A stretch of 64,000 nt of DNA from the NCBI RefSeq assembly GCF_013315695.1, contig NZ_CP054353.1, one strand, 5' to 3'. The stretch is from Escherichia coli (lineage in GTDB: Bacteria; Pseudomonadota; Gammaproteobacteria; Enterobacterales; Enterobacteriaceae). Positions within the stretch are counted from its first letter, which is position 1, and every line of letters begins with the position of its first letter. A program made the position numbers. Positions 18,001 through 21,000 of this stretch are shown here, one piece after another.

Positions 18001-21000
18001 TTTTATGACTGACTTCTCCAACAAGATTGTCTCTTATTCCATAAATGATAACACCAATAGCTATGTAAACAGCGGAAAGGCCCGGTTGCATGGTGTGGAA
18101 TTTGCCGGCACATTGCCGCTGTGGTCAGAGGATGTCACGCTGTCACTGAATTACACCTGGACCCGAAGTGAACAACGTGATGGTGATAACAAAGGTGCGC
18201 CGCTGAGTTATACCCCTGAACACATGGTGAATGCGAAACTGAACTGGCAGATCACCGAAGAGGTGGCATCATGGCTGGGTGCCCGTTATCGCGGGAAAAC
18301 ACCACGTTTCACCCAGAATTATTCGTCACTGAGCGCTGTACAGAAGAAAGTGTATGATGAGAAAGGAGAATACCTGAAAGCCTGGACGGTGGTGGATGCA
18401 GGTCTGTCGTGGAAGATGACGGATGCCCTGACGCTGAATGCTGCGGTGAATAACCTGCTCAACAAAGATTACAGTGACGTGAGCCTGTACAGTGCCGGTA
18501 AGAGTACGCTGTATGCCGGTGATTACTTCCAGACGGGATCATCAACAACAGGATATGTGATACCTGAGCGAAATTACTGGATGTCGCTGAACTATCAGTT
18601 CTGATAATAACAAAACGCTATCACTGACGGTAGAATACGTTGCCACTGCAACTCCTGGCGGAACAGTGGCAACGTATTAGGTTAAGTGCATTTCCGATCC
18701 GCTAATGAGATTTCGTTACCAACAACTAATATCGTCACAGGAAATGCACGGATTATTTTTAACTTATCATTTACATACTTGTCCAGAGTGTAAGCGCACC
18801 GTGAAGGACGTGGGGTAAAAATTAGTTTACAGAGAGAGTGACGTTCCAGGGCAACAACTCTTTCATGCGGTTGGCAGGCCAGGTGTTGATTACACTGATC
18901 ACGTGGCGTAGCCACGTTTCCGGCTCGATTCCGTTAAGTTTTGCAGCTACCGATCAGGCTGTACATCACTGCCGCACTATCGCTCGTCATCTCAAAGTCC
19001 GGTCTCGTCAGCAGGAAGGTATCATTCTCTCCCGCCATTTTTCCGGGGGCCCGGTCAGATAAGTCCCTTTGTCTATCGCTGACTCCTGGCTCATAACCCG
19101 GTTAGCAGAATGCAGGGTCACCACCTCGCCACGACCGAATCCGGATAAGTCAATTGCACCTTCTCAATCGCCATTTTGTCACAATTAAGTTTGATAAATC
19201 AGGTCACCTCTGCACTGAATCTGCTCCAGTGCCTCATTGGTCTCCGTCCACCCCTTTAAACTGCCGGATAAGACTGCTGCACAGCGCCTTCCCCGGAATC
19301 AAATCACTTTCCCTGTCCGCCACAATCCGCTTCATGCCACCTCGTATTTTGTTTCAGAGACCGGAATCTGCCAGAAAGTGACTACGCGTGCACATATCGG
19401 TTTTCTGGGTTACATGCATCGTGTTATTTTCTGAAATGCAAAATAATAAAAAACAAGGACACATAATGAAGGATGAAATACACAGTACCAGCATCAACCC
19501 GGATGTTGTTGAGCAGTTTCTGGCCCTTATGAACACACATTGTAAATCCTCAGAAGAGGCGCTCGCCATGTTGAGTACGCTTTGCTACAACCTGATGGTG
19601 ACATGTGGTATCCATTCCATGGACAGCCAGATGCTCAATGGGCATGGGATATCCATGCAACTTCAGGGGATTGATATTGCCGAAAGGCCAGGTAAGAATA
19701 TTCACTAACCTGAACAGGGTCTGAAAACGCTGTCTTTTCAGGCCTCTGCAGGCAAAAACTGATGACAACAAAATTTCTGCGTTTGTACCCCACCGATGAA
19801 AAAGACAAAAACTCACACCGGGCTTCTAGCCAGTAAAGATAAAACCCGACGTGTCAGCCTCTACGAAACGCCAACGGCATGGTGTATCAGGGGGCAGGAG
19901 TGCTACAGCAAAAGTACAGGACGCCGCTGTGGCAGCCACGACAGTCTGAGCAGACTGCGCCTGGACAGCATTAAGCCTGTTGAATGAGTGGTGGCACCAT
20001 GAAAGATAACAACACAACCGCCACCCCAGAAGCCTGGAAAATGCGTTTTCTGGCCAACGGGACATCCGGCACATGGTTTTACACTGACGACATTACAGTC
20101 ACTGACGCGTGGCTTCGCGCGCACCCGGATGATGTGGAGGTTATCCCTCTCTGCCGGATACCACCCCGTCAGCATTCCCATGAACAACATATTGAAGAAC
20201 TCCGTGCAGCCCTGGCCCGGATGCTGCATATGCATCATATGATGCTGGAAACCACGCATTACAGGGAAAACATCACCGATGCCCGTTGTATCCGTGAAAT
20301 GCATGAAGCTCCATTACAGGCGCTCAATATTCTGGCCAGATACCCGCATAAAAAGGACGAGGTGTGACGCATGTGGCTACTGATTTTCTGGCTTTCATCT
20401 CCCTTTAATGTCTCTTCCGGTGATGCCCGGCAGCCCACACTGGCGGTGCACAGCCAGGCATTTCATACCGAACGGGCCTGTCGCGATGCATTGCACGCCA
20501 TTAAAAAGGAGAATGTTGGCGAATTTTCTCTGCGGGGCGTTTGTGTTTCTGACGGAAATACGAAGGAGGAAGCTGAGAGCTCATGACGGATATTACTGAC
20601 AGACATACACTTCGCCGTATGTCCTGGTCGGAACTCTTCACGGCAGCACAGGAAGCGGAATTTCAGCGTGATTACGAGCGTGCCAGAATAGTGTGGTCAT
20701 TCGCCTTACATGTTGCAACAACCACGATTAACAAAAATCTGGCCATAGCTCATATTCGACGCTGCAATACTTTGTTGCATAAATCAAAAACAGTACCCGG
20801 AAACAACACGGGGGGCCGGTCAGTGTGCCTGAGACCCCAACATCCCCGGAGATGACTGACATTCCGGACTGACGCAGTTGCTGCATATCTGTGGCAATAC
20901 GTTGTATCCAGCCAGACAGGTTATCCCGCGTAGTGACAATTAACCCGCTTTCCTGCACCAGCTTCAGCCGGGCCGTCGGGGATTTTACCAGCCGGAAATA

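Follow-up and report, generated by a model that had tools for sequence, protein, structure and literature searches.

An iha-adjacent gene cluster of Escherichia coli as a probable I-complex plasmid fragment with a conserved O2-O5 unit and a divergent ANR-like protein

The window analysed here is a stretch of 64,000 nucleotides, read on one strand, from Escherichia coli contig NZ_CP054353.1 (assembly GCF_013315695.1); its positions 19466-20855 contain a cluster of five small plus-strand open reading frames (ORFs), named O1 to O5, close to the iha gene. The best overall explanation, which we regard as narrowly probable, is that the cluster is a plasmid-derived fragment carrying a modulating operon, O2-O5, whose last product, O5, is a protein of the ANR type. 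The components of this explanation differ in strength: the plasmid origin and the operon structure, taken alone, are highly probable, and an ANR-like mechanism, taken alone and proposed by analogy, is tentative and rather more apt to fail than to hold. The new elements are the plasmid origin of the DNA adjacent to iha, the conserved O2-O5 unit and the position of O5 at the edge of the ANR family; to specialists these will be unsurprising, since islands often contain conserved cassettes of small hypothetical genes that come from phages and plasmids.

The conserved block extends from 19308 to about 21037 and was found in 998 of the 5426 complete E. coli genomes, at 809 chromosomal and 261 plasmid places; the ORFs are thus conserved in related islands, whose lack of them the earlier note, made from this DNA alone, had named as grounds for giving up its reading. 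The plasmid hosts are conjugative plasmids of mating-pair-formation type MPF_I, typed IncB/O/K/Z, IncK2/Z or IncI-gamma/K1 (conjugative is the type assigned to 509 of the 598 plasmids matched), and their gene order is excA, a TnsA-like or 'sigma-70-like' gene, hok on the minus strand, O1-O5, a helix-turn-helix (HTH) gene of the ECs1377 family on the minus strand, nuc, dqlB, trbABC and the relaxase gene. The cluster, flanked by excA and hok/sok at one end and by nuc and trbABC at the other, has the synteny of cargo in the excA-trbA variable region of I-complex plasmids; the trbA-traY interval of these plasmids is documented as highly variable (PMC8004404). On two IncB/O/K/Z plasmids, the gene between excA and hok codes for a 528-aa 'TnsA endonuclease N-terminal domain' protein (6954-8540 of locus L003 and 1954-3540 of locus L006).

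Alignment with two plasmid copies places the beginning of plasmid homology at window position 19308, 17 bp past sok, the antisense RNA of hok/sok (pnd). Rfam models detected sok in plasmid copies only (L006 3828-3984); over window positions 18600-21400 they gave no sok and a single chance-level match (E 0.61), outside the cluster. At the other end, the minus strand at about 20779-21037 carries the 3' remnant of the ECs1377-family HTH gene, convergent with O5, in which the last 60-87 codons or so survive and the N-terminal two thirds are lost; the remnant is 67% identical to residues 138-196 of the plasmid protein (BLASTP), and DNA homology reaches window position 21037. The intact gene is plasmid-borne in 472 of 473 places. 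Since hok/sok is absent, the ECs1377-family gene is cut and its intact form occurs almost only on plasmids, the window copy is a doubly truncated fragment of the excA-trbA accessory region of an I-complex plasmid. This backbone origin, which emerges from the synteny and from the ends of homology, had been overlooked in the earlier note; it makes the iha-adjacent DNA in islands of extraintestinal pathogenic E. coli (ExPEC) and of E. coli that produce Shiga toxin (STEC) a captured piece of an IncB/O/K/Z plasmid.

Five genes are contained in the cluster, all on the plus strand. O1 (19466-19708; 80 aa, acidic, pI 5.3), identified by ORF scan and called by the Prokaryotic Genome Annotation Pipeline (PGAP) in a near-identical chromosome copy, is followed by O2 (19796-19987; 63 aa, basic, pI 10.0), O3 (19999-20367; 122 aa), O4 (20371-20586; 71 aa, with a hydrophobic N-terminus) and O5 (20583-20855; 90 aa, 10.5 kDa, basic, pI 11.1). 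PGAP calls the identical five genes on the near-identical chromosome and labels every one of them 'hypothetical'. The four ORFs of roughly 70-127 aa that had been listed previously are all present, but the fifth, O2, had escaped notice; likewise, the ATGA overlap between O4 and O5 (4 nt, 20583-20586) was correctly described, whereas the gap preceding it, between O3 and O4, is of 3 nt (20368-20370) rather than 4. The spacer between O2 and O3 is 11 nt. Shine-Dalgarno-like motifs precede O3, O4 and O5, and the AAGGA Shine-Dalgarno motif of O1 lies within the upstream stretch 19308-19465. The longest version of O3 is a 127-aa ORF (19984-20367); ATG 19999 is the most likely start over ATG 19984, because it has a GGTGG Shine-Dalgarno-like motif upstream, is the sole start in the divergent plasmid allele and is the choice made by PGAP.

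O2-O5 probably form one operon, as judged from their spacing and from a gene order, O2-O3-O4-O5, that is identical in two plasmid lineages, one of them at 72% DNA identity. The single operon that the earlier note had deduced from the tight coupling is therefore probable for these four genes; O1 belongs to a separate block. At the 3' end of O1, a plus-strand sigma-70-like consensus match (19671-19699; TTGATA, 17 nt, AAGAAT) is a putative promoter of O2-O5, and the four genes would be co-transcribed from a promoter near 19700. Promoter and terminator counts were at or below those of shuffled sequence.

Compared with the plasmid allele L005 (IncK2/Z, 72% DNA identity), O2, O3 and O4 show dN/dS ratios of 0.12, 0.11 and 0.08, respectively, with dS saturated; because of these low values, they can be regarded as real genes under strong purifying selection. 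Against alleles 88-94% identical in DNA, third codon positions hold most of the changes in O1, O3 and O4, and the O1 of locus L008 differs from that of the window at 16, 8 and 31 first, second and third codon positions. The core of O5 retains 44% amino-acid identity in the lineage with 72% DNA identity. Overlapping antisense and alternative-frame ORFs, such as the one at 19903-20304 on the minus strand, do not have a coding substitution pattern, their trend being the reverse of that in O1, O3 and O4, and were rejected as genes.

O1 is missing from the divergent lineage of IncK2/Z and IncI-gamma plasmids (L005, L009). Moreover, the IncK2/Z copy L008 is 25-45% divergent from the window over 19310-19670 and nearly identical to it from about 19670 onward, the break coinciding with the sigma-70-like match at 19671-19699. 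The absence of O1 in one lineage and the divergence break in the other argue that O1 and O2-O5 are separate recombination blocks. The O1 protein gave no Pfam, NCBIfam or PADLOC match at E <= 1 and a single chance-level match in PHROGs (E 0.33); O1 is a lone orphan gene, and it moves together with the hok/sok part of the plasmid region.

The known ANR (AraC negative regulator) proteins include Aar of enteroaggregative E. coli (EAEC) 042, Cnr of enterotoxigenic E. coli (ETEC) and Rnr of Citrobacter rodentium (PMC4038620, PMC4983702, PMC5570504). They have three helices at conserved positions, a conserved cysteine near the C-terminus, a length of 39-80 aa and a mass below 10 kDa (PMC4038620); their genes are located near, and controlled by, an activator of the AraC/XylS family (PMC4038620, PMC4983702), and the proteins bind a transcription regulator, either an AraC-type activator or H-NS, and not DNA (PMC4983702, PMC5570504). 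O5 matched the NCBIfam ANR model NF033650 over nearly its full length (positions 6-53 of 54; E 1e-5) with 25.3 bits, the curated cut-off being 32 bits. All nine O5 relatives tested matched NF033650, likewise over almost the entire model, and no other model; scores of 28.0, 28.5, 30.7, 32.6 and 32.8 bits were obtained, so that two close relatives exceed the threshold, and Aar itself scored 65.7 bits. O5 also had a PHROG match and one sub-threshold Pfam match, to HTH_OrfB_IS605 (E 0.07).

The AlphaFold2 (AF2) model of O5, built on 17 sequences, has a predicted local distance difference test (pLDDT) score of 80 overall and of at least 94 over residues 11-60; it predicts the three helices typical of ANRs, at 15-27, 31-44 and 48-69. 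The ordered core spans residues 11 to 70 approximately, and the tail, 73-90, is disordered and overlaps the end of the convergent ECs1377-family gene. Cys61 is invariant in the 17 family members and aligns with the cysteine in the FCEAY stretch of Aar, as expected for an ANR. Superposed on a phage protein of 60 aa that bears the label ANR, the model gives a root-mean-square deviation (rmsd) of 0.9 A over 57 columns, at a non-significant E of 0.18. O5 is thus small and basic, with three predicted helices and a conserved C-terminal cysteine, and it occurs on mobile, virulence-associated DNA of pathogenic E. coli, features that resemble those of ANRs. It differs from them in its low identity to Aar (about 20%), in its length of 90 aa (plasmid alleles measure 74-83 aa and, in the other lineage, 103 aa; the ordered core has about 70 aa), and in its place at the end of a putative four-gene operon, the known ANR genes being lone and divergent from an AraC/XylS activator. 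A tblastn search of plasmids with the O5 core and a profile search of 5.8 billion proteins returned only its own E. coli family, none of whose members is labelled ANR. On these grounds O5 is filed as a divergent ANR-like protein and not as a proven ANR; the 'regulatory module' of the earlier note finds partial backing here, in the NF033650 match, the predicted helices and Cys61.

Some of the names borne by these proteins in databases were rejected. 'Neurotensin receptor R8', used for O5, rests on a similarity to mammalian NTSR1 of E about 1, which is chance level, and 'flagellar biosynthesis protein FlgM' was unsupported by any profile search run on O5 relatives; these misnomers have propagated (relatives at L005 7797-8108 and L009 5797-6108). 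One O3 allele is labelled 'P-loop NTPase family protein', and the window O3, the sole allele scanned, matches no family. Three misleading names can therefore be replaced by a tested description.

For O2, O3 and O4, no Pfam or NCBIfam family and no PADLOC entry was matched at E <= 1. Two of them do belong to phage families: O2 matched phrog_1226 (E 1e-16) and O4 matched phrog_3766, a family of unknown function (E 1.5e-10); no significant PHROG match was obtained for O1 or O3. The statement that none of the ORFs resembles a nameable family is hence wrong for O5 (ANR) as well as for O2 and O4, whose PHROG families have no assigned function. The tblastn search with O2 reached 100 phage records, with homologues 40-52% identical; they sit in the early-left (exo-xis/ea) regions of lambdoid and Shiga toxin (Stx) phages, beside exonuclease, integrase and Ea22-like genes. 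For O4, a Klebsiella phage has a homologous ORF that lacks annotation and is situated in its early region, with the replication genes on one side and ninE/ninG on the other. Both proteins can accordingly be placed, by profile match and early-region occurrence, among lambdoid-phage early accessory families. Hydropathy and alignment with the Klebsiella phage homologue reveal in O4 a conserved hydrophobic N-terminus (MWLLIFWLSSPF) and two conserved cysteines, from which it is probably a small exported or membrane-anchored envelope protein. A Cys3His zinc site or zinc finger in O2 was ruled out, the cysteines not being kept in the phage homologues; the idea of a conserved O3-O4 pair in phages was also rejected, for the gene labelled 'EaD' that lies upstream of the O4 homologue in the Klebsiella phage bears no relation to O3.

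O3 has a Trp-rich N-terminal part, probably of beta structure, and a C-terminal stretch of about 50 aa (residues 65-115 approximately; window 20191-20343) that corresponds to a widespread helical domain. Full-length relatives, down to 54% identity, are almost confined to E. coli. An exhaustive HMMER search gave 70 matches, the remote ones covering only positions 60-115 or so, with the consensus L..AL.RM..MH.LMM.K.NHGASFYDAEC.REMNEAP.QA. The domain forms the C-terminus of proteins of 60-220 aa with varied N-terminal parts, one of which is of the 'TPGPW...ANARLMAAAP' type; the remote homologues share no Pfam family and fall into scattered PHROG families of unknown function. The domain is undescribed and is a candidate new family. 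The AF2 model of O3 is unusable (pLDDT 46.6, from a 7-sequence alignment), and sequence searches of solved structures with O2, O3, O4, O5 and the O3-domain profile gave chance-level matches only. The contig that carries the 54%-identical O3 homologue (L014 8782-10468) contains also three PerC-family genes, ProQ, SSB and the phage antiterminator Q, beside type III secretion export genes, and thus represents a further regulatory setting on mobile DNA.

These data are consistent with O2-O5 being an accessory cassette that modulates the host or the plasmid, of the type found in the early regions of temperate phages. O5 would bind a transcription regulator, an activator of the AraC/XylS type or H-NS, rather than DNA, and would thereby retune expression, by analogy with Aar, Cnr and Rnr. 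ANRs target AraC-family activators, at their central dimerisation region, and/or H-NS. Up to now the family has been linked to diarrhoeagenic pathogens and AraC activators; if O5 acts like Aar, the range of the family would grow to include extraintestinal E. coli and conjugative resistance plasmids, where its member would share an operon with three partners.

Several observations weigh against this proposal. The 25.3 bits of the window O5 fall short of the ANR cut-off, and its similarity to Aar is weak in direct comparisons: profile alignment by hhalign gave P 0.007 and a probability of 6%, and the HMMER score of 9.6 bits barely exceeded the best of 999 shuffles (8.8 bits). The Foldseek E-values of the O5 model are not significant, and three-helix units of TPR, Sel1 and MIT domains match it about equally. 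In the chromosomal and plasmid stretches examined, which cover about 4-9 kb to either side, the annotation shows no AraC/XylS gene, so that the neighbour characteristic of ANR genes is missing. The promoter at 19671-19699 is only a consensus match, and such sites are not more frequent than in shuffled sequence. The term 'modulating' itself rests on O5 and on analogy, because O1-O4 have no functional assignment. The literature search returned neither expression or phenotype data nor any functional study of O1-O5: knock-outs of the neighbouring pndACB and pCT_066 of plasmid pCT had no phenotype, in a study to which O1-O5 did not belong (PMC4083329), and the study of pESBL likewise examined neighbouring genes only (PMC4288162). 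Finally, the chromosomal copies could be functionless passengers.

This last point depends on the chromosomal setting within a virulence island; its coordinates were mapped through alignment with a PGAP-annotated chromosome record that differs from the window at 14 positions between 10300 and 30000. To the left of the cluster is iha (16514-18604, from the PGAP annotation of the near-identical copy), followed by an IS66-type transposase-domain remnant (about 18822-18972, minus strand); to the right is an IS110-family transposase pseudogene with a frameshift and an internal stop (about 21164-21995, minus strand), 87-94% identical to ISEc45 in locus L002. Both insertion sequence (IS) flanks were correctly recognised in the earlier note. 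Other ExPEC chromosomes and one STEC chromosome have the same unit of iha, the IS66 remnant, O1-O5 and the IS110 remnant, and the cluster therefore travels with iha. Thus the chromosomal cluster might be an inert plasmid fragment, hitch-hiking with iha through IS-mediated rearrangement and retained because it is recent. Its ends are both cut by IS remnants with loss or truncation of the hok/sok and ECs1377-family neighbours, one genome (H16) has IS3 insertions within the block, and most chromosomal copies are at least 99% identical to one another, so that selection in the chromosome is not measurable. On the other hand, the copies examined (two from ExPEC and one from STEC, with 98.8-100% identity to the window) have kept each of the five ORFs intact, and the differences between the chromosomal and the plasmid lineage are mostly synonymous (5 synonymous and 1 non-synonymous in O4; 7 and 4 in O3). 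We consider an inert passenger unlikely; moreover, it would account for the chromosomal copies only and is compatible with a function on plasmids.

Two further alternatives concern the function of the genes wherever they reside, and both had been raised in the earlier note. Being small, translationally coupled (the ATGA overlap, the 3-nt gap) and located on mobile DNA, with the hok/sok addiction locus as their plasmid neighbour, the genes might constitute a toxin-antitoxin (TA) or addiction module, in which one small protein is toxic, a neighbour neutralises it, and the island or plasmid is stabilised. This is very improbable: no toxin or antitoxin family was found among the five proteins in Pfam and NCBIfam at E <= 1, the conserved unit consists of four genes and not of two, the 54%-identical O3 homologue is a solo gene, and phage early regions carry O2-like and O4-like genes as single genes. 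Neither O1-O5 nor the ECs1377-family protein matched any PADLOC-DB model at E <= 1, and we infer that the cluster is neither a TA pair nor a known defence system. The other alternative is an anti-defence or host-takeover cassette, whose phage-type early proteins would inhibit restriction, other immunity or host functions upon entry. Lambdoid early regions are rich in anti-defence and host-modulating genes; the O2 and O4 families are found in the ea, nin and exo-xis early regions, and many small proteins, among them some with matches to phage families, contain the C-terminal domain of O3. However, the PHROGs assign no function, O5 resembles a family that binds transcription factors and not a known anti-defence family, and the cluster is outside the leading region of the plasmids: it lies past trbABC/nikB from oriT, in DNA that enters last (table in PMC4288162), and the related plasmid pESBL has its leading-region genes, ssb, psiB and ardA, across oriT from this position (PMC4288162). 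An anti-defence role is decidedly unlikely on this evidence, and for the leading-region kind no support was found.

The modulating operon with an ANR-type O5 is thus preferred. It can be taken further, to a portable regulator-jamming operon in which O5 would bind H-NS or an activator of virulence or transfer and so reset the expression of horizontally acquired genes; this extension appears improbable. If true, the targets could be adhesin, toxin, siderophore-system or conjugation genes, the reach would comprise the I-complex resistance plasmids and about one fifth of sequenced E. coli, including ExPEC ST131, ST73 and Nissle 1917, and O2-O4 would be unrecognised partners in a multi-protein system, in contrast to the solitary ANRs known so far.

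Other small regulators and cassettes offer partial parallels. The PerC/Pch-like regulators (PF06069) of prophages and phage-inducible chromosomal islands (PICIs) are, as O5, small helical proteins on phage-related mobile elements, and PerC genes are present near one O3 homologue; O5, however, gave no match to the PerC model of Pfam at E <= 1. One PICI member of this group has been proposed to be ANR-like (PMC11773190). In the IncI1 plasmid pESBL, the excA-trbA interval holds other small cargo, including a Hha/YmoA gene (PMC4288162), i.e., a modulator of H-NS silencing; the slot is equivalent and variable, and the likeness is positional only, with no sequence relation to O1-O5. Its presence there indicates that the slot carries small cargo for host regulation. 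O2 and O4 have homologues among the lambdoid early genes (P22 ea, lambda exo-xis/nin; PHROGs 1226, 7520, 5148 and 3766; 40-52% identity), which are equally tiny, tightly packed and co-oriented. These phage genes are single and have other neighbourhoods, whereas the four-gene O2-O5 arrangement was observed nowhere other than on I-complex plasmids and in the islands they gave rise to.

As for the surroundings of the cluster, a gene for a serine protease autotransporter of Enterobacteriaceae (SPATE) of the EspP/EpeA type is inserted directly upstream of the O2 homologue in STEC plasmids typed IncK2/Z and IncI-gamma (L005 2606-6697, L009 617-4693, L007 1794-5693), and in the window another SPATE gene, sat, lies about 6 kb downstream of the cluster; the cassette has probably come to lie repeatedly near SPATE genes through IS-mediated mosaicism. 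Fragments that carry the annotation 'TOTE conflict system archaeo-eukaryotic primase domain-containing protein' are present in the same island, at about 14223-14433 (minus strand) in the window, and at 10614-10694 in L002, which represents another ExPEC lineage and in which the fragment directly adjoins the cluster at its right end. The cluster DNA may thus at one time have had a defence or primase element as its neighbour.

Two observations regard more distant genes of the window. The 60-aa hypothetical ORF WP_000922606.1 (16393-16575, minus strand), antisense over the start of iha, is probably spurious and is annotated in all three chromosomal records examined. The aerobactin gene iucA, at about 37655-39445 on the minus strand, looks disrupted, its longest ORF being of 415 aa (38198-39445), and a related genome record gives iucA as a pseudogene with an internal stop; upstream of it, ORFs of the size of iucB, iucC, iucD and iutA are intact.

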